From a virus, in IMG/VR virus record IMGVR_UViG_3300020048_000015, positions 1 to 64,000 of that record: a stretch of DNA of 64,000 nt; one strand, given 5' to 3'. The position numbers and the translations under genes are program-made. Below the pieces are notes generated by a model, which was given only the letters and a program-made list of their open reading frames with translations, searched no databases and was not told the origin of the DNA. This document shows, piece after piece, positions 3,423 through 60,736 of the stretch; the first letter of the stretch is position 1; each line of letters starts with the position of its first letter.

Positions 3423-3881
3423 ATGAATAATAACGAAAATATAAAAGATATTTGTAAAGAATATGGTATAATAAACTATACTATAAATGATGATTTGACT
3501 ATTGATGTAAATGGCAATGTTTATCTTAGTAGAATTGGATTAACAAAACTACCACTTAAATTTAATAAAGTAATTGGTTATTTTTATTGTTCTTATAATC
3601 AATTAACCAGTTTAGATGGTTGTCCTAAAGAAGTTGGTGGGGATTTTGATTGTTCTTCAAATAATTTAACAAGTTTAGAGGGTAGTCCTAAAGAAGTTGG
3701 TGGTTATTTTTCTTGTTCAAGAAATAATTTAACAAGTTTAGAGGGTAGTCCTAAAGAAGTTGGTGGTTATTTTAATTGTCATCTTAATCCATTACCACAA
3801 GAAGTAATTTATAATCCAAAAGAAGAAATTAAACGTTTGAATAGAGAAAAGAAACTAAATATACTATTAAATGAAGATTGA
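3423..3881 (+). CDS. 21-aa-repeat LRR-like protein, type A tail (3 repeats)
   Basis: Head ICKEYGIINYTINDD; repeats LTSLEGxPKEVGGxFxC; ends REKKLNILL. Confidence 0.9.
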   Translation: MNNNENIKDICKEYGIINYTINDDLTIDVNGNVYLSRIGLTKLPLKFNKVIGYFYCSYNQLTSLDGCPKEVGGDFDCSSNNLTSLEGSPKEVGGYFSCSRNNLTSLEGSPKEVGGYFNCHLNPLPQEVIYNPKEEIKRLNREKKLNILLNED

Positions 3882-4320
3882 AGAAATTTGTGAATATTAT
3901 GGTATACAAAACTATACAATTAATGATGATGGTTCAATTGATGTAGATGGAAATGTCAATTTAGCATATAAAGGTTTAACTATTATTCCATTGAAATTTA
4001 ATAAAGTGACTGGTTATTTCTCTTGTTCTGTTAATAAATTAACATCATTAGAAGGTTGCCCTATTTGGGTTGGTGGTAGTTTTCATTGCTATGCCAATAA
4101 ACTTGTTAATTTAATAGGTTGTCCAAGTTATGTTGGTGCTATGTTTAATTGTAATGACAATTACTTAACTACTTTAGAAGGTTGCCCATCTTATGTTGGT
4201 GGTTATTTCTACTGTCTACAAAACCCACCACTTCCAAAAGAAATAATGGATAATCCAAAAGCAGAAATATTAAGATTACAAAGAGAAGCAAAATTAAATA
4301 CCTTATTAAACTCGTTTTAA
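3871..4320 (+). CDS. LRR-like protein, type A (3 repeats)
   Basis: Same architecture; ends REAKLNTLL; overlaps the previous stop. Confidence 0.9.
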   Translation: MKIEEICEYYGIQNYTINDDGSIDVDGNVNLAYKGLTIIPLKFNKVTGYFSCSVNKLTSLEGCPIWVGGSFHCYANKLVNLIGCPSYVGAMFNCNDNYLTTLEGCPSYVGGYFYCLQNPPLPKEIMDNPKAEILRLQREAKLNTLLNSF

Positions 4321-4388
4321 GACACTTTTATTTTAATATTATACTAACCTATATAAAACTAATTAAAACTCATTAAATAGCCAAAAGA

Positions 4389-5030
4389 ATGATAAATATA
4401 AAAGAAATTTGTAGAAAATATGGTATAACAAATTATACAATTAATCTGGATGGTTCAATTGATGTAGTTGGTAATGTTTATTTAATACACGATGGATTAA
4501 CAGAAATACCACTAAAATTTAATAAAGTTTCTGGTGATTTTTCTTGTTCCAGAAATAAATTAACAAATCTAGAAGGCTGTCCTAATTATGTGGGTGATAC
4601 ATTTTATTGTGGTTATAATAACTTAACATCATTATATGGTTGTCCGAATTATGTAGGAGATGCATTTTATTGTGGTTATAATAACTTAACCTGTTTAATA
4701 GGCAGTCCTAATTATGTGGGTGATACATTTTATTGTGGTTATAATAACTTAACATCATTATATGGTTGTCCGAATTATGTAGGAGATGCATTTTATTGTG
4801 GTTATAATAACTTAACCTGTTTAATAGGCAGTCCTAATTATGTGGGTGATACATTTTATTGTGGTTATAATAACTTAACATCATTATATGGTTGTCCATC
4901 TCATATAGGTGGGAAATTTTATTGCTATGGTAATCCACTACCAGAAGAAATAAGGGATAATCCTATGGCAGAAATAAAGAGATTGAATAGAGAATCAAAA
5001 CTAAATCTACTATTAAATGAATATTTATAA
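4389..5030 (+). CDS. LRR-like protein, type A (6 repeats)
   Basis: Same architecture; contains exact 126-bp internal duplications. Confidence 0.9.
   Translation: MINIKEICRKYGITNYTINLDGSIDVVGNVYLIHDGLTEIPLKFNKVSGDFSCSRNKLTNLEGCPNYVGDTFYCGYNNLTSLYGCPNYVGDAFYCGYNNLTCLIGSPNYVGDTFYCGYNNLTSLYGCPNYVGDAFYCGYNNLTCLIGSPNYVGDTFYCGYNNLTSLYGCPSHIGGKFYCYGNPLPEEIRDNPMAEIKRLNRESKLNLLLNEYL
4581..4897 (+). repeat. Exact tandem repeat, 126-bp unit x2.5
   Basis: Units start at 4581, 4707 and 4833. Confidence 0.9.
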
Positions 5031-5469
5031 AATTTGTGAATATTATGGTATACAAAACTATACAATTAATCCGGATGGTTCCATTGATGTAAATGGTAAT
5101 GTTTGGTTGTTTAATAAAAATTTAACCAAACTACCACTTAAATTTAATAAGGTTTCCTGTAATTTTAGTTGTTCCGATAATAAAAATAACTTAACATCTT
5201 TAGATGGATGTCCGAATTATGTAGGTGGTAATTTTTATTGTTCTAATAATAAATTAACATCATTATATGGTTGTCCTAATTATGTTGGTGGTAATTTTTA
5301 TTGTCATAATAATGAAATAACCAGTTTAGATGGTTGTCCAAAAGAGATTGGTGGTAATTTTCATTGCTATAGTAATCCACTACCACAAGAAATAATGGAT
5401 AATCCAAAAGCAGAATTATTAAGATTAAACAGAGAAAATAAATTAAATATACTATTAGATGAATATTAA
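5017..5469 (+). CDS. LRR-like protein, type A (3 repeats)
   Basis: Same architecture; ends RENKLNILLDEY. Confidence 0.9.
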   Translation: MNIYKICEYYGIQNYTINPDGSIDVNGNVWLFNKNLTKLPLKFNKVSCNFSCSDNKNNLTSLDGCPNYVGGNFYCSNNKLTSLYGCPNYVGGNFYCHNNEITSLDGCPKEIGGNFHCYSNPLPQEIMDNPKAELLRLNRENKLNILLDEY

Positions 5470-5842
5470 AGAAATTTGTAAACTCTATAATATAGAAAAC
5501 TATAAAATTAATCCAGATGAATCTATTGATGTTGATGGTAATGTTATTTTATTTAATAGAAGATTAACCAAACTACCATTAAAATTTAATAAAGTAACTG
5601 GTGATTTTTCTTGCACTTCTAATCTATTAACAAATCTAGAAGGATGTCCGAATTATGTAGGTGGTAATTTTGGTTGTGTAGCTAATAATATAACCAGTTT
5701 AGAAGGATGTCCGAATTATGTAGGTGGTAATTTTAATTGTCATCTTAATCAATTACCAGAAGAAATAAGGAATAATCCTAAAGCAGAAATTTTAAGATTA
5801 CAAAGAGAATCAAAATTAAATATACTATTAGATGAATATTAA
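5459..5842 (+). CDS. LRR-like protein, type A (2 repeats)
   Basis: Same architecture; ends RESKLNILLDEY. Confidence 0.9.
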   Translation: MNIKEICKLYNIENYKINPDESIDVDGNVILFNRRLTKLPLKFNKVTGDFSCTSNLLTNLEGCPNYVGGNFGCVANNITSLEGCPNYVGGNFNCHLNQLPEEIRNNPKAEILRLQRESKLNILLDEY

Positions 5843-6235
5843 AGTAATTTGTAAACTCTATAATATAGTAAACTATACTATAAATCATGATGGATCCATT
5901 GATGTAGATGGTGATGTTAATTTATATAATAAAAGATTAACGAAAATTCCAATTAAATTTAATAAAGTAACTGGTTATTTTACTTGCTGTGATAATGAAA
6001 TAACATCATTAGAAGGATGTCCTAATTATGTTGGTGATAATTTTTCTTGTGTAGCTAATAAATTAGTTGTTATAGTAACAATCTAACCAGTTTAGAAGGT
6101 AGTCCAAATTATATAGGTGGATATTTTTTTTGTAGTGGAAATCCATTACCTAAAGAAATAATTGATAATCCTAAAGCAGAGTTATTAAGATTACAAAGAG
6201 AATCAAAACTAAATAGTTTATTAGATGAATATTGA
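5832..6235 (+). pseudogene. Frameshifted LRR-like gene, type A
   Basis: Frame breaks near 6066 after ANKL; another frame continues CYSNNLTSLEGSP...RESKLNSLLDEY* to 6235. Confidence 0.8.
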
Positions 6236-6587
6236 TGAAATTTGTAATGAATATGGTATAACAAATTATACAATTAATCCAGATGGATCTATTGATGTAA
6301 ATGGTAATGTTACTTTAAGATCAAATAGTTTAGAAAAAATAACCTATAATTCAATAGTTATACTAATAGGGGAAAATGATGATGGACTATCTATTGACCT
6401 AAATGAAATATCTAAAATAGATACAATCTATAAAGAAAACTTAAATGTAGTAGACTCAACTCTCTATCACTCCGGTTATAAAAATGGTCAAATTGATGCA
6501 GATAATAAAAAATACTTATGGAAAAAAGTAACCCAGGAAAATGGTGAAATAATTTATCTAAACAAATTTAAAACTTTATATGAATAA
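6225..6587 (+). CDS. Chimera: LRR-family head fused to an unrelated C-terminal domain
   Basis: First ~39 aa are the LRR head; the tail DSTLYHSGYKNGQID resembles 33421..33720. Confidence 0.7.
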   Translation: MNIDEICNEYGITNYTINPDGSIDVNGNVTLRSNSLEKITYNSIVILIGENDDGLSIDLNEISKIDTIYKENLNVVDSTLYHSGYKNGQIDADNKKYLWKKVTQENGEIIYLNKFKTLYE

Positions 6588-10807: not shown

Positions 10808-11147
10808 AGATATGTTCAACTGTAAACCATCTGAACCAATCAGAATGGATAAAGCAGATTTTGTAGAAAAAACAAAATCTTTATTGGAAAGTCTGTACGA
10901 AATTTATTCTAAGGGATGGGTGCGTAGAGTATTAACAACCGATGAATATCAAGGTGAAACTGTTTGTGAGAACTGCAAGGGCTGTGGGGTATTCATTGAA
11001 AATGGGGAAGAGAAGGATTGTTATATAGATTATGAAATGGGCGATTGTTATCATCGGTTTTGTGATTATGAGCAGGTCGGGATGGACTTGGAATTAAAGT
11101 TGGATAATATTATTGATTTATTAGTAGTTAACGAAGTGATATGTTAA
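10797..11147 (+). CDS. Hypothetical protein with Cys motifs (possible Zn finger)
   Basis: CENCKGC...CYH..C. Confidence 0.6.
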   Translation: MEFEDMFNCKPSEPIRMDKADFVEKTKSLLESLYEIYSKGWVRRVLTTDEYQGETVCENCKGCGVFIENGEEKDCYIDYEMGDCYHRFCDYEQVGMDLELKLDNIIDLLVVNEVIC

Positions 11148-11896
11148 GAAATTTTCTAAGAAATATTAGAATCAATATGATTTGTAGGAAATATAATATA
11201 AGAAATTATGTTATAAATAAAGATGGTTCTATTGATGTATATGGTGGTGTTGATTTATCAAATAGAAATTTAGATAGACTGCCATTAAAATTCAATAAGG
11301 TTAGTAACTATTTTTATTGCAAGAATAATAACTTAACAACTTTAGAAGGTTGTCCTATTTGGGTTGGTAATAGTTTTAATTGCTATGATAATAAACTTGT
11401 TAATTTAACAGGTTGTCCAAGTTATGTAGGTGATGATTTTTGTTGTTCTAATAATTACTTAACCAATTTAATAGGAAGTCCAAAAAAAGTTGGTTTGAGT
11501 TTTTTTTGTTATAGTAATAAATTAACCAGCTTAGAAGGCGCACCTAATTATGTAGGTTGTCATTTTTATTGTTTTGATAATCAATTAAGTAATTTAATTG
11601 GTTCACCTAATTATGTAGGTTTTGAATTTGATTGTTCAAGTAATAATTTAACCAGTTTAGAAGGCTGTCCTAAAGAAATAGGTGATTTTAGTTATTATAA
11701 TAATTTAATAAGGGGAATAATAGGTTTATTTAATAACATTAAAATATATTTAGATTATCAAGAAACATATAATTTCCTTAGAAAAGATTCTAAAATTGTT
11801 AAGCATAGATTAGATGAAGCCATAAAAGATTATAATGAATATTATGATGATTGTGTTGAATTACCAGAAAAAATATATGGGTATGTTTATATTTAG
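11141..11896 (+). CDS. LRR-like protein, type B tail (6 repeats), N-terminal FLRNIRINMI
   Basis: Same head and repeats; tail YLDYQETYNFLRKDSKIVKH...LPEKIYGYVYI. Confidence 0.9.
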   Translation: MLRNFLRNIRINMICRKYNIRNYVINKDGSIDVYGGVDLSNRNLDRLPLKFNKVSNYFYCKNNNLTTLEGCPIWVGNSFNCYDNKLVNLTGCPSYVGDDFCCSNNYLTNLIGSPKKVGLSFFCYSNKLTSLEGAPNYVGCHFYCFDNQLSNLIGSPNYVGFEFDCSSNNLTSLEGCPKEIGDFSYYNNLIRGIIGLFNNIKIYLDYQETYNFLRKDSKIVKHRLDEAIKDYNEYYDDCVELPEKIYGYVYI

Positions 11897-12593
11897 ATAT
11901 GTAATTAATTTTCTAAGAAATATAAGAATAAATAGGATTTGTAGAAAATATGGTATAACTAATTATACAATAAATCCTGATGGTTCAATTGATGTAGATA
12001 ACAATGTTTCTATATCATATAGAAAATTATATAGATTACCATTAAAATTCAATAAGATTAGTGGTTGGTTTGATTGTTCTTATAACAAATTAACAAATTT
12101 AGATGGTTTCCCTAATTATGTTGGTGATTGGTGTGATTGTACCCATAATGAATTGACAAGTTTAGAGGGTGCGCCTAAAGAAATTGGTGGAAATTTTAGA
12201 TGTTATCTTAACAATTTAACAGATTTAAAAGGTTGTCCAAAAGTTATTAATGGATATTTTGATTGTTCTAATAATAAATTAACAAGTTTAGTAGGATGTC
12301 CGAATTATCTTGATGGTGGTTTTTCTTGTGGTGATAATAATTTAACAAGTTTAGAAGGGTGTCCAAGTGATGTTGGTGGTGTTTTTTTACATTCTTATAA
12401 TCCAATTTCACCAATAATAGATTTATTTGATGATATTAAAATATATTTAGAATATCAAGAAACATATAATTTCCTTAGAAAAGATTCTAAAATTGTTAAA
12501 CATCTTTTAGATGAAGCTTTAAGAGATTATAATGAATATTATAATAAAAATATAAGATTACCAAAATCATTTTATCGTTATGTTTATATTTAA
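11883..12593 (+). CDS. LRR-like protein, type B (5 repeats), N-terminal FLRNIRINRI
   Basis: ORF 11835..12593; likely start 11883; type B tail. Confidence 0.9.
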   Translation: MFIFRYVINFLRNIRINRICRKYGITNYTINPDGSIDVDNNVSISYRKLYRLPLKFNKISGWFDCSYNKLTNLDGFPNYVGDWCDCTHNELTSLEGAPKEIGGNFRCYLNNLTDLKGCPKVINGYFDCSNNKLTSLVGCPNYLDGGFSCGDNNLTSLEGCPSDVGGVFLHSYNPISPIIDLFDDIKIYLEYQETYNFLRKDSKIVKHLLDEALRDYNEYYNKNIRLPKSFYRYVYI

Positions 12594-14465: not shown

Positions 14466-14648
14466 ATGACAATTAAATTTCTTAATAAGAATATGTTTAG
14501 ATATATAAATAGGATCTTAACCAAACTACCACTTAAATCCAATAAAGTTTATGGTCATTTTTATTGTTTTGGTAATAATTTAAATACTTTAATAGGTTGC
14601 CCGAATGAAGTTATTCATTTAAAAAATTATTATTTTTTAAATGAATGA
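14466..14648 (+). pseudogene. Multiply deleted LRR-family remnant
   Basis: Stitched pieces FRY-INRI / LTKLPLKSNKV / FYCFGNNL / TLIGCP; the 5' part mirrors the 11883 start. Confidence 0.65.
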
Positions 14649-19960: not shown

Positions 19961-20524
19961 ATGGATATCAAAAAAATCTGCAAAAATTATAATATTTTTA
20001 ATTATACAATAAATCCAGATGGATCTATTGACGTGTATGGTAATGTTAAATTAACACATAGTTTAGAAAAAATACCATTGAAATTCAATAAAGTTACAGG
20101 TGATTTTTATTGCTCTAATAATAACTTAACATCTTTGGATGGATGTCCTAACTATGTTGGTGGTGATTTTTTTTGTGCCAGAAATAGATTAACATCTTTG
20201 GATGGATGTCCTAACTATGTTGGTGGTGATTTTTTTTGTGATAGTAATAAACTATCAAACTTAGAAGGTTCTCCAAAAGAGGTTGGTGGTAATTTTTGGT
20301 GTCTATATAATCAATTAACCCGCTTAATAGGTTGTCCAAATTATGTAGGTGGTAATTTTTATTGTAATGATAATCAATTAACCAGCTTAATAGGTTGTCC
20401 AAATTATGTTGGTGGTCGTTTTTCTTGTCTTAATAATCCATTACCACAAGAAATATTAGATAATCCTAAAGCTGAAATAATACGTTTGATAAGAAATGAT
20501 AAGATAAATTATATCTTAGATTAA
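19961..20524 (+). CDS. LRR-like protein, type A (5 repeats)
   Basis: Same architecture; ends RNDKINYILD. Confidence 0.9.
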   Translation: MDIKKICKNYNIFNYTINPDGSIDVYGNVKLTHSLEKIPLKFNKVTGDFYCSNNNLTSLDGCPNYVGGDFFCARNRLTSLDGCPNYVGGDFFCDSNKLSNLEGSPKEVGGNFWCLYNQLTRLIGCPNYVGGNFYCNDNQLTSLIGCPNYVGGRFSCLNNPLPQEILDNPKAEIIRLIRNDKINYILD

Positions 20525-40970: not shown

Positions 40971-41240
40971 TTATATTCCTAATTTTGTTAATTGTAATTC
41001 TCTATGTTCTTCTAAATTAATTATTCTTTCCCAGAGACCGGAATGAACAAAATGCAGTGTCCCATCTTCTAAGTTAGTTATACTACCTGTTATACTACCT
41101 GTTTTAACACCAAACCCATCATTTAGACTATCAATTCTGTATCTATCCCCAGGTTTGAAATGATAATCATAAGAACCACCTTGTTTACCATATTTAGCTG
41201 TATAAGTAGATTTAAAATAAACTATATCTCCTATTTTCAT
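40971..41240 (-). CDS. Small C-tagged protein flanked by 26-bp direct repeats
   Basis: Start MKIGD; ends NLEEHRELQLTKLGI. Confidence 0.7.
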   Translation of the reverse strand: MKIGDIVYFKSTYTAKYGKQGGSYDYHFKPGDRYRIDSLNDGFGVKTGSITGSITNLEDGTLHFVHSGLWERIINLEEHRELQLTKLGI

Positions 41241-41548
41241 TCTATTTTGTTTATCTTTTGACATATGATTTCATTAATTTTAAAAGAATAATCTTGTAAT
41301 TTATTTATTTTATTAATTATTATATGTAATTTTTTTAAATTACAATCATCATTATATAGTTCAACAAAACTATCTCTTATTTTGTTCCATTTTTTAGAAT
41401 AATCTTTTTTATACCCATTATATAATTCAGAAAAATTTTCATTAAGCAATAATTCTAACTTAGATTCCCTATCCAAAACATCAAAATTTTCCATATTATT
41501 TATTAAAATATTTATATAATCAAAATATCCTTTTATATATTCATCCAC
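41237..41548 (-). CDS. Hypothetical protein with an internal tag-like motif
   Basis: RESKLELLL. Confidence 0.6.
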   Translation of the reverse strand: MDEYIKGYFDYINILINNMENFDVLDRESKLELLLNENFSELYNGYKKDYSKKWNKIRDSFVELYNDDCNLKKLHIIINKINKLQDYSFKINEIICQKINKIE

Positions 41549-58289: not shown

Positions 58290-58356
58290 ATTTTTTTGTT
58301 TTATAATCAAAGATAAAAAAAAATTTCCAAATAAAAAAATTAATATATAGAATTAT

Positions 58357-58875
58357 ATGAAATATTTAAAATTATTCGAAAACTTTAATAAATCAGAGAT
58401 TGATGAAATTTGTAATGAATATGATATAAAAAATTATATTATAAATCCGGATGGAAGCATAGATGTAGATGGTAGTGTTGATTTAGCATACAAAAGACTA
58501 TCGGAACTTCCACTTAAATTTAATACAGTTAGTGGTGGTTTTAATTGTTCTAATAATAACTTAACTACATTAGAAGGTGCTCCTAATTATGTTGGGAAAA
58601 ACTTACTATGCCAAAATAATAACTTAACAAGTTTAGATGGGTTTCCAAATGTTGTAGGTGGTGAATCTTGGATACTATATAATCCTATACATGAAATCAC
58701 ACGTTTATTTGGCTATACTAAAATATATTTAGAATATCAAGAAACATATAATTTTGTCAGAAAGGATTCTAAAGTAGTTAAATATTTATTTGAAGAAGCA
58801 TTAAATGATTATAATGAATACTACAATAAAGAAGTTAAATTACCAGAAGAAATATACAGATATACTTATATCTAA
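58357..58875 (+). CDS. N-tagged LRR-like protein, type B (2 repeats)
   Basis: MKYLKLFENF + head + repeats + type B tail. Confidence 0.9.
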   Translation: MKYLKLFENFNKSEIDEICNEYDIKNYIINPDGSIDVDGSVDLAYKRLSELPLKFNTVSGGFNCSNNNLTTLEGAPNYVGKNLLCQNNNLTSLDGFPNVVGGESWILYNPIHEITRLFGYTKIYLEYQETYNFVRKDSKVVKYLFEEALNDYNEYYNKEVKLPEEIYRYTYI

Positions 58876-58893
58876 ATAAAAATAATAATTTAA

Positions 58894-59451
58894 ATGAAAA
58901 ACGATAAGATATATAAATATCATGAATATCTAAAAGAAAATCTATTAGATTCACCAGAAACCTATGTGGAATCAGCATTAAGAAAATTAGAAAATAGAAT
59001 AAAATCTATGTTTGATGTTGATGAGAAAGGTGATGATGTTAAAAAATATGGCGTAAAATCAGATATAAACAGAAAAGAAAAAGGTGAATTATCATTTAGT
59101 GACTTAGGTTTAAATTTAGAAAGTTTAGAACTATCCAAATATTCTAAAACACAAGATAATTTAAAACTTAAATTTTCTGATGAACAGTTCCTATATGATA
59201 TAACATTTTCAATTGATTTAAAAGATGCAGTTCCAAAAGATAAAGAAAGTGATTTTTCTGAATCAGATATTAAAAAATGTCAAATTAAATTTAAAAAATA
59301 TTCAACTGATGACTTTCAATTAGTAGCAGGACCTTTAACTAAAACAGATGGTTTAGATAAAATAGATGAAGAATATTTAGTAAATATAAAGATTGAACTT
59401 GATGAAACATCAGGTGATGAAGAAGATGAATTTAAAATAGAAACAGAATGA
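58894..59451 (+). CDS. Hypothetical protein (N-tag-like start)
   Basis: IYKYHEYLKEN. Confidence 0.7.
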   Translation: MKNDKIYKYHEYLKENLLDSPETYVESALRKLENRIKSMFDVDEKGDDVKKYGVKSDINRKEKGELSFSDLGLNLESLELSKYSKTQDNLKLKFSDEQFLYDITFSIDLKDAVPKDKESDFSESDIKKCQIKFKKYSTDDFQLVAGPLTKTDGLDKIDEEYLVNIKIELDETSGDEEDEFKIETE

Positions 59452-60032
59452 AATATTTAAAATTATTTGAAAATTTTAATCAATCAGAAATTGATTATAT
59501 TTGTAGAAAATATAACATTCAAAAATATACAATAAATCTTGATGGATCTATTGATGTAGATGGTCATGTTAATTTATACAAAAAACAATTAACTGATATC
59601 CCCCTTAAATTTAATAAAGTTTCTGGTTTTTTTGATTGTTCTGGTAACAACTTAACAAATTTAATTGGGTGTCCAAATTATGTTGGTGATTTTTTTAATT
59701 GTGCAAATAATCAATTAACAAGTTTAATAGGCTGCCCAACAGAAATTTGGCAAGGTTTTGATTTTGGATTCAATAAATTGACCAATTTAGAAGGTGTTGC
59801 TAAAATTATTAATAAACATACATGGTATAGTGATAATCCAATAACACCAATAATAGATTTATTTGGATATGATGTTAAAAAATATTTAGAATATCAAGAA
59901 ACATATAATTTTTTAAGAAAGGATTGTAAGATTGTTAAACACTTATTAATAGAAGCATTGGAAGATTTCAATACAGAATATAAAGATAATGTTGAACTAC
60001 CAGAAGAAATAGAAGGATATACTTATATATGA
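59448..60032 (+). CDS. N-tagged LRR-like protein, type B (3 repeats)
   Basis: MKYLKLFENF + head + repeats + type B tail. Confidence 0.9.
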   Translation: MKYLKLFENFNQSEIDYICRKYNIQKYTINLDGSIDVDGHVNLYKKQLTDIPLKFNKVSGFFDCSGNNLTNLIGCPNYVGDFFNCANNQLTSLIGCPTEIWQGFDFGFNKLTNLEGVAKIINKHTWYSDNPITPIIDLFGYDVKKYLEYQETYNFLRKDCKIVKHLLIEALEDFNTEYKDNVELPEEIEGYTYI

Positions 60033-60736
60033 AACACTTAAAACTATTTGAAAACTTTAATAAATCTGAAATTGATGATATTTGTAAAAAATATGGAATA
60101 AGAAACTATATAATAAATCCTGATGGGTCTATTGATGTTGATGGTGATATTAATTTAGTTAATATAAATCTAATTAAATTACCACTTAAATTTAATATAG
60201 TTTCTGGGGAGTTTGATTGTCGTGGTAACAAATTAACTTCTTTAGAAGGTTGCCCTAAAGAAGTTGGTGGTGATTTTTCTTGTTATGCTAATCAATTAAC
60301 TAGTTTAGAAGGTTGCCCTAAAGAAGTTGGAGGTTATTTTGATTGTGCAAATAATCAATTAACCAGTTTAATAGGTTGCCCTAAAGAAGTTGGTGGTTAT
60401 TTTAGTTGCACTACTAATCAATTGACATCTTTAGAAGGTGGTCCAAGTAAAGTTGGTGGAAGTTTTTATTGTCAGCGTAATAAATTAATCAGTTTAGATG
60501 GACATCCAGAAGAAATTGGTAGTTCTCGTTGGTATTATAATAATCCAATTTCACCAATAATAGATTTATTTGATGATATTAAAATTTATTTAGAATATCA
60601 AGAAACATATAAATTTTTAAGAAAAGATTGTAAAATTGTTAAACACCTTTTAGATGATGCTTTAAAAGATTATAATGAATATTATAATAAAAATGTAGAA
60701 TTACCAAAAAAAATTAAAGGATTTTGGTTAACATAG
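60029..60736 (+). CDS. N-tagged LRR-like protein, type B (5 repeats)
   Basis: MKHLKLFENF + head + repeats + type B tail. Confidence 0.9.
   Translation: MKHLKLFENFNKSEIDDICKKYGIRNYIINPDGSIDVDGDINLVNINLIKLPLKFNIVSGEFDCRGNKLTSLEGCPKEVGGDFSCYANQLTSLEGCPKEVGGYFDCANNQLTSLIGCPKEVGGYFSCTTNQLTSLEGGPSKVGGSFYCQRNKLISLDGHPEEIGSSRWYYNNPISPIIDLFDDIKIYLEYQETYKFLRKDCKIVKHLLDDALKDYNEYYNKNVELPKKIKGFWLT

Follow-up and report, generated by a model that had tools for sequence, protein, structure and literature searches.

Alternative, almost mutually exclusive end-modules on a leucine-rich repeat scaffold of a huge uncultured phage

Leucine-rich repeat genes of the window

The stretch analysed here (hereafter, the window) comprises the first 64 kb (64,000 nucleotides, nt) of the IMG/VR virus record IMGVR_UViG_3300020048_000015, a contig of 182,728 bp with 25% GC that is a fragment of a huge uncultured T4-like phage, and it includes members of an expanded family of leucine-rich repeat (LRR) genes whose products bear, at their ends, either a short N-terminal leader or a C-terminal tag (C-tag). 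The contig holds about 30 members of this one small binder-type gene, which belong to a single phage-specific family of small cysteine-ladder LRR proteins, presumably binders, of 120-250 residues. Their core scaffold is an N-cap followed by zero to seven 21-residue LRRs per protein, with a cysteine in every repeat. Pfam LRR_4 matches to these proteins fall below the cut-off, and some metagenomic homologues have a precomputed PF12799 match; at E ≤1e-5, database searches return 6,900 proteins with a query of the type termed B below and 1,493 with a query of type A. A protein identical to the product of gene 60029 (genes are named by their first coordinate) is encoded on a 353,919-bp contig, and a moderately distant relative has a published genome of 642 kb, LR756502.1, in which the genes held in common are 65-72% identical at the DNA level. 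The host of the clade is taken as Bacteroidetes on the weak grounds of low GC and lipoprotein-like signal peptides.

Type A genes form a tandem array on the forward strand (3423-5842, +) of five intact, leaderless genes with the C-tag at their end (3423-3881, 3871-4320, 4389-5030, 5017-5469, and 5459-5842), followed by a type A gene (5832-6235, +) that a frameshift has split into 5832-6086 and 6062-6235. The packing is such that 11 nt overlap at 5017/5459 and at 5459/5832, the ..DEY stop of one gene lying over the MNIK start of the next. A sixth intact gene, also leaderless and C-tagged, stands isolated at 19961-20524 (+). The sequence-only reading had held that the six intact type A genes end in the C-tag and have no N-terminal tag, and both the termini and the profile scores bear this out: all six end in NPLPxE..R(L/I)xR(E/N)xK(L/I)Nx(L/I)L, the type A proteins that were scored reach about 20-23 bits on the C-tag profile, and the proteins start directly with the N-cap helix (MNIKEIC...), upstream of which there are in-frame stops or few codons. 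In the AlphaFold2 model of 5017 (mean predicted local distance difference test, pLDDT, 93.8), the C-terminus is a 20-residue helix at 130-149. Two LRR remnants were also seen on the forward strand, namely an N-cap fused to an unrelated 80-residue end (6225-6587, +) and a 60-residue fragment with one repeat (14466-14648, +).

Type B genes are represented in the window by five members (11141, 11883, 58357, 59448, and 60029) that have a tail of about 60 residues (..YLEYQETYNFLRKD..GYTYI) in common. Three of them lie in a co-directional cluster. The first (58357-58875, +; 172 aa) consists of leader, N-cap, two repeats, and B tail, and its leader MKYLKLFENF is encoded by 58357-58386 (+), one of 24 contig copies of a 30-nt 5' cassette. 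A non-LRR gene without family match (58894-59451, +; 185 aa) separates it from the second (59448-60032, +; 194 aa, with leader), whose stop overlaps the start of the third in an ATGA; the third (60029-60736, +; 235 aa), whose protein was folded, starts with MKHLKLFENF. The other two lack the leader: 11141 (11141-11896, +) starts MLRNFLRNIRINMIC and sits in an operon with no late-type motif (see below) within 3 kb upstream, and 11883 (11883-12593, +; ..NFLRNIRINRIC) overlaps with its start the end of 11141. As had been read from the sequence, 58357, 59448, and 60029 start with MK(Y/H)LKLFENF in their translations, and the type B tail is different and free of the C-tag, the C-tag profile threshold being reached by none of the five type B proteins of the window.

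Throughout the contig, 14 of the 18 genes with a B tail carry the leader; 11141 and 11883 are leaderless, 182347 is truncated at the contig end, and 126032 has a 330-aa N-domain that itself starts with the leader-like MKYIKSYIGF. The 409-residue paralog at 65284-66513 (-) continues, after leader, LRR core, and B-like tail, into an added domain of about 190 residues without family match, which shows that further domains can follow the tail. Searches of Pfam and PHROGs with the B tail, the 330-aa N-domain, the extra C-domain of 65284, and several leader-bearing cargo proteins gave no match above the cut-off, the top hints below it (methyltransferase and DUF5872) being both weak. In the AlphaFold2 model of 60029, built on 35 aligned homologues (mean pLDDT 94.5), residues 1-8 score below 50, no secondary structure precedes the N-cap helix (12-21), and the tail forms three helices (175-179, 184-194, and 205-219); the leader is thus predicted to be a disordered, floppy peptide. 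The LRR models of 60029 and 5017 both have one short strand pair per repeat.

When the type B model was compared with the Protein Data Bank by Foldseek, the best matches were the LRR domains of IpaH1.4, IpaH3, and YopM, which are weak (E about 0.01, template modelling score 0.4-0.45); this search returned generic LRR matches alone and nothing for the tail. The effector LRRs of IpaH, SspH, and YopM resemble the phage proteins in the predicted solenoid of about 21-residue repeats, whereas the phage proteins have their own N-cap, a Cys per repeat, and phage-specific end-modules, with neither an E3 ligase domain nor a cell-wall anchor.

Distribution of the leader and the C-tag

Neither end is restricted to LRR genes. 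The 30-nt leader cassette occurs at 24 contig sites with at most four mismatches, each of them at the start of a gene, which in 10 cases is a non-LRR gene; the leader profile exceeds 8 bits in 37 of 254 contig genes and in 109 of 959 genes of LR756502.1. Similarly, the C-tag takes across the proteome the form (I/L)R(D/E/N)xK(L/I)xx(L/I)(L/G), an amphipathic helix at the end of unrelated small proteins: a C-terminal score of at least 8 bits is found in 23 of 254 contig proteins versus 8 of 51,480 other windows of the proteins, and 135 proteins of LR756502.1 exceed 12 bits. The motif is not strictly C-terminal, as it is also internal in about 50 proteins of LR756502.1. In the window, the N-terminus of an 85-residue open reading frame (ORF) at 41237-41494 (-) is strongly C-tag-like (MENFDVLDRESKLELLLNE.., 18.1 bits).

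The leader and the C-tag are almost mutually exclusive, both in the LRR family and across the proteome. LR756502.1 holds just one LRR gene, an N-domain fusion; within-family exclusivity was therefore tested on metagenomic homologues, in a census of 198 distinct members with a recognisable N-cap drawn from this genome and from metagenomes. The C-tag is present in 30 of them, of which one (P0197) has a true leader, while among the 168 C-tag-negative members at least 133 carry the leader and about 12 have neither end (Fisher p = 2e-14, uncorrected for relatedness). Across the 959 proteins of LR756502.1, simple profiles identify the leader in 166 and the C-tag in 177, with 3 proteins having both where 30.6 would be expected; the corresponding number for this contig is five, all marginal, where 7.7 would be expected. 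On no A-tail gene of the contig does a short leader stand directly on the N-cap. The sequence-only reading had proposed that exclusivity should be looked for in the whole genome and in relatives, and it is in these counts that the proposal is sustained. Six leader-bearing LRR homologues of 300-400 residues (P0006, P0053, P0071, P0098, P0103, and P0119) end in ..DL(x)D(x)GF or ..LGDVGL, ends that recall the ..KLxxLGI form of the C-tag in LR756502.1 but are without the R..K part; if these ends were the same signal, the six proteins would bear both tags.

The core between the ends is common to the two types. The DNA of N-cap and repeats has a cross-class median identity of 73%, up to 80% over 290-333 nt, against about 75% within classes, and a tree of the N-cap does not set the classes apart. 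Moreover, two natural cases show ends exchanged on the same N-terminal part. P0186, whose gene lies on a longer contig, some 5 kb left of the window, matches 60029 in N-cap DNA at about 95% identity starting with the first codon past the leader, yet it is without the 30-nt leader and has an A tail with the C-tag. Its upstream residues were considered as a decayed leader and rejected as such, since in the DNA alignment the stretch for the leader is missing or the end of the upstream gene stands in its place. The second case is the pair 126032 and 170036, with nearly identical N-domains of about 300 residues that start MKYIKSYIGF but with different tails: one has a B tail, and the A tail of the other breaks off at RLNI, immediately ahead of the tag core, with a terminator hairpin after it. 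Exclusivity among homologues and among unrelated proteins, the natural swaps, and the same core make it real that one scaffold has alternative ends. Of the modular, interchangeable ends proposed from the sequence alone, the alternative and almost exclusive end-modules with their natural swaps stand, and their number is two tags, not three.

Tails may also move on their own. The tails of 11883 and 60029 had been described as nearly identical in DNA but with differing N-termini, and they are: the two stretches (12397-12550 and 60540-60693, both +) are 93.5% identical over 154 nt when anchored on the motif, the coordinates given earlier being off by one base in register. This is the top of 120 tail pairs (median 73%, second 85.7%), while the N-cap DNA of the two genes is 71% identical, a disparity that points to a recent gene conversion of the tail alone. 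Other apparent traces of exchange concern the 5' end. The non-LRR genes at 99102-99350 and 90211-90891 (-), of which one is DUF5872-like and the other methyltransferase-like, start with the leader plus the first residues of the LRR N-cap helix (..NQFEIDDI.. and ..DQSEIDRF..), so that unrelated genes seem to have acquired the 5' end of an LRR gene by recombination; at 99102, the upstream TTAATATATA motif was transferred along with it. At about 131690-131730 (-), a remnant of the leader cassette (ATGAAATACATAAAACTATTTGAAAACTTT) runs directly into a TTTAATATATA motif and then into another gene start (MNIRTFKGF..), an arrangement suggestive of a fossil leader with a newer start downstream. The sole LRR gene of LR756502.1 (96696-98024, +) ends in ..DSYTYEGMKYLRNFKNF, as if a B-tail end (GYTYI) had been extended by readthrough into the leader of a downstream paralog that has since been lost.

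The third tag had been seen in the N-terminus of 11141 and 11883, (..)NFLRNIRINxIC, whose FLRNIRINxI was read as the C-tag moved to the N-terminus. On such a reading, one scaffold would have three alternative addresses, and the scores of the FLRNIRIN segment on the C-tag profile (8.7 and 10.0 bits) lend it something, as about 1.6 in 10,000 internal windows reach 8 bits. These scores, however, lie below those of 19 of the 23 true tags, which have at least 14 bits, and part of them comes from the I-x-x-I of the N-cap helix that is present in most paralogs. A six-frame search of the contig found FLRNIRINxI solely in this tandem pair, the matching metagenomic proteins (P0013, P0021, and P0110) are the same genes as the pair, and the segment is at the wrong end of the protein, 23 of the 31 C-tag-profile matches of at least 8 bits on the contig being C-terminal. 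A third address is hardly tenable on these grounds, and FLRNIRIN is the divergent, lineage-specific N-terminus of two tandem genes that have no recognisable leader and belong to a non-late operon, rather than an address. Its origin as an out-of-frame or decayed leader was also tried and dropped, since the DNA alignment is ambiguous in such AT-rich sequence, and the claim is limited to its being lineage-specific.

Exclusivity within a genome may have a simpler origin, and some observations weigh against reading it as routing. Tag and tail travel together by tandem duplication of overlapping gene junctions, because the overlap of neighbours (ATGA in B arrays, 11 nt in the A array) means that each duplication copies a tail together with the start of the next gene; within-genome counts are therefore not independent, and it is for this reason that homologues, unrelated proteins, swaps, and core identity were examined. 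P0197, with both tags, is an exception in the family; it lies on a 928-bp contig and is a mosaic, its N half being 62-68% and its C half 86-88% identical to different lineages. In addition, all gene calls are simple longest-ORF calls. Descent alone would thus make A and B two subfamilies with inherited ends, multiplied by tandem duplication, whose end motifs play no part in routing. The stop/start overlaps of both arrays are in keeping with it, as is the leader cassette of the contig, almost identical in DNA across its copies; nor can a tree of the N-cap (50 columns), meant to count the independent changes of tag, give their number, as it was unresolved and supported the pair of 126032 and 170036 alone. 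Descent does not foresee, however, that dozens of unrelated proteins bear these two motifs and likewise tend not to combine them, that A-B cores are no more different than B-B cores, that the end-swapped genes (P0186; 170036 versus 126032) again have a single tag, or that the promoter-like motif described below differs between the classes. As a full account, it is improbable.

A further question is whether the peptide or the nucleic acid is under selection. The leader of the contig uses the rare codons TAC and AAC (TAC is 50%, versus 11% in gene bodies) in a nearly fixed DNA sequence, and each type A C-tag lies just upstream of the next start, as might be expected if the shared ends were signals for translation initiation, promoters inside upstream genes, or recombination sites, with the peptides as by-products. 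The near-identical DNA of the contig cassette and its unusual codons also indicate recent copying, which explains part of the local pattern and so detracts from a functional reading of it. In LR756502.1, on the other hand, synonymous codons of both the leader and the C-tag vary about as much as they do elsewhere in the genome, with the residues conserved, and the substitutions are conservative at the protein level (F/Y, L/I, K/R, and D/E/N). Since neither tag departs much from the codon usage of that genome, leader and C-tag are best regarded as peptide signals under peptide-level selection, and a signal in the nucleic acid appears very improbable.

Promoter-like motif and gene neighbourhood

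The two classes differ also in a promoter-like motif and in their gene neighbourhood. The motif, with AATATATA as its core and TTAATATATA as its fuller form, was counted within 45 nt upstream of gene starts; in the window, TTAATATATA stands at 58340-58349 (+), ending 7 nt before the ATG of 58357. In LR756502.1, the core precedes 56 of 109 leader genes, 141 of 691 other genes, and none of 159 C-tag genes, the reverse-complement control giving 12%, 4%, and 3%, respectively. On this contig, it is found at 19 of 37 leader genes, 26 of 195 other genes, and 1 of 22 C-tag genes. At the level of LRR transcription units, the motif lies at most 62 nt from the first gene in eight of nine leader-bearing units and is absent upstream of the type A array, of 19961, and of the 11141/11883 unit; upstream of the array, no TAATATATA occurs within 3 kb, and the sole motif near 19961 is on the opposite strand. 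The Bacteroidetes-type promoter TAnnTTTG does not differ between the classes.

The core is also found in LR756502.1 upstream of the portal gene, a protease-like ORF, the capsid gene, and a baseplate hub. Among large motif-bearing genes of this genome, PHROGs returned a baseplate hub, a peptidase, and a homing-endonuclease-like protein, with no match for seven of ten. The C-tag genes of LR756502.1 are short (median 109 residues), operon-internal in 69% of cases, and clustered together, and adjacencies of a leader gene with a C-tag gene number 14 against 36 expected. On this contig, leader-bearing LRR genes at 139252 and 142711 flank a piece of a family B DNA polymerase with an intein (139888-141810, +) and a ClpB-type double AAA+ ATPase (137112-139211, +).

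Possible destinations of the two classes

The ends, the motif, and the neighbourhood probably define two expression-and-address classes on one common LRR scaffold. Class 1 (type B) has a late-type 5' cassette, made of the motif TTAATATATA and the ten-residue flexible leader MK[YH][LI]KLFENF, to which its LRR genes add the 60-residue helical C-terminal cap ending GYTYI. Class 2 (type A) lacks the leader and has a short cap followed by the C-terminal amphipathic helix tag, in packed operons without the late-type motif. That each LRR copy has a leader or a C-tag, and hardly ever the two together, suggests that the same binder may be sent to two destinations. No description of the leader, of the C-tag, or of this LRR expansion was found in the literature; what is new is one binder family split between two classes, with a promoter difference, proteome-wide exclusivity, and natural swaps.

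For class 1, a destination may be proposed by analogy with T4. Its proteins would be made alongside the head genes, the leader would dock them into the assembling prohead and then, like the T4 capsid targeting sequence (CTS), be removed by a gp21-like protease through cleavage after Glu, and the LRR binders would be injected ready-made. Such loading, cleavage, and injection are plausible, and are put forward tentatively, from the probable T4-type head module of the lineage, the floppy leader, and a putative cleavage context. LR756502.1 has a probable head module of three adjacent genes, in which a gp20-type portal (PF07230, 196 bits) and a gp23-type capsid protein (PF07068, 99.5 bits) are both above the cut-off and the third gene is the protease-like ORF. 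The cleavage context, [L/I/V]-x-Glu within residues 3-16, is found in 76% of leaders here and in 56% of those of LR756502.1, versus 22-28% of non-leader proteins, with Glu mostly at position 8 or 11.

The closest parallel is the T4 CTS, which has about ten residues and is the sole part conserved among diverse internal-protein cargo (PMC3012670; doi 10.1101/2021.01.19.427310). The leader is like it in being an N-terminal MK peptide of about ten residues, with aromatic residues and Glu, common to unrelated accessory proteins; in the conservation of the peptide and of the upstream promoter region around variable cargo genes; and in the T4-type portal and capsid genes of the phage lineage. The likeness, however, is one of kind and not of sequence, the leader is carried here by 11-17% of genes versus a handful in T4, and the phage cargo includes an expanded LRR family next to a second, exclusive class with a C-terminal tag. 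Another comparison is offered by the N-terminal propeptides that the prohead protease removes from head and ejection proteins in the giant phages SPN3US and phiKZ. The prohead protease of these phages cuts after Glu, and their propeptides are long and protein-specific, unlike one short common leader; to our knowledge, no LRR family or alternative C-tag has been reported for them. The likeness here is that large phages package many proteins with the DNA, with processing by a T4-related prohead protease (PMC5694885, PMC7411985, PMC10052503).

Several points speak against capsid loading. The T4 CTS itself, MKTYQEFIAE, scores -15.0 bits on the leader profile, at the 33rd percentile of all N-termini, and [L/I/V]-x-Glu is found in just 56-76% of leaders. 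The protease in the head region is doubtful, as a 699-residue ORF of LR756502.1 matches the prohead-protease family PF03420 with 20-23 bits, below the threshold of 27. A search for head genes on the 183-kb contig gave weak gp23-like fragments and no prohead protease, no capsid protein of the nucleocytoplasmic large DNA virus type, and no head module; its block at 104-124 kb, tried as a structural module, is a sugar-modification operon. With 11-17% of all genes bearing a leader, the packaged protein species would number more than 100, far above the approximately 50 head proteins that have been reported in SPN3US (PMC7411985). Lastly, the label of late promoter derives from motif sharing alone, with few of the motif-bearing genes annotated, and the 9-mer of the motif is not over-represented genome-wide (33 and 30 sites on the two strands versus 26 expected for each).

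These points leave room for the leader to be a real peptide signal of late proteins with another purpose, such as a handle for a chaperone or protease, docking to another late assembly, or N-terminal stability. Its disorder, the selection on the peptide, and the link to the late-type motif would be in keeping with any signal of late proteins, more than 100 tagged proteins from each genome would be a large load for a capsid, the T4 CTS fails to match the profile, and the ClpB-type AAA+ protein encoded on the contig could be invoked as a partner. On the other side, the lineage has a T4-type portal, a protease-like ORF, and a gp23-type capsid protein, T4 offers the sole known example of an N-terminal peptide of about ten residues common to diverse accessory proteins, and the Glu in its [L/I/V]-x-E context is enriched at positions 8 or 11. 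A late signal of this other kind is unlikely, without being far-fetched.

For class 2, the proteins would be made earlier inside the cell, and the C-terminal helix would dock to a partner. By description, and with no sequence match claimed, the C-tag is like the ssrA tag, the tail of SspB for ClpX, and the cargo-loading peptides of encapsulins, all short C-terminal addresses common to unrelated proteins; it is unlike them in that its motif is also internal in phage proteins. A wider proposal is that of a two-address proteome, in which more than a tenth of the genes would carry the late cassette and have their products loaded into the capsid and injected, a comparable number of small proteins, from other operons that are probably earlier, would carry the helix for a different reader, the LRR family would be deployed in both, and selection would remove one tag when the other is gained; the LRR genes would then be a portable library of binders with switchable delivery. 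In this full extent, the proposal is possible but open to considerable doubt.

The late-type motif, the leader profile, and the C-tag profile are practical markers that sort unannotated genes of huge phages into two functional classes. The one-tag rule on a single scaffold is, moreover, a clean natural experiment, in which the same core comes with either address and a swap of the tag should redirect it. If the leader class is packaged and injected, dozens of pre-made specific binders would be delivered with the phage DNA, which would extend the counter-defence idea of the T4 internal proteins to a far greater scale and modularity.

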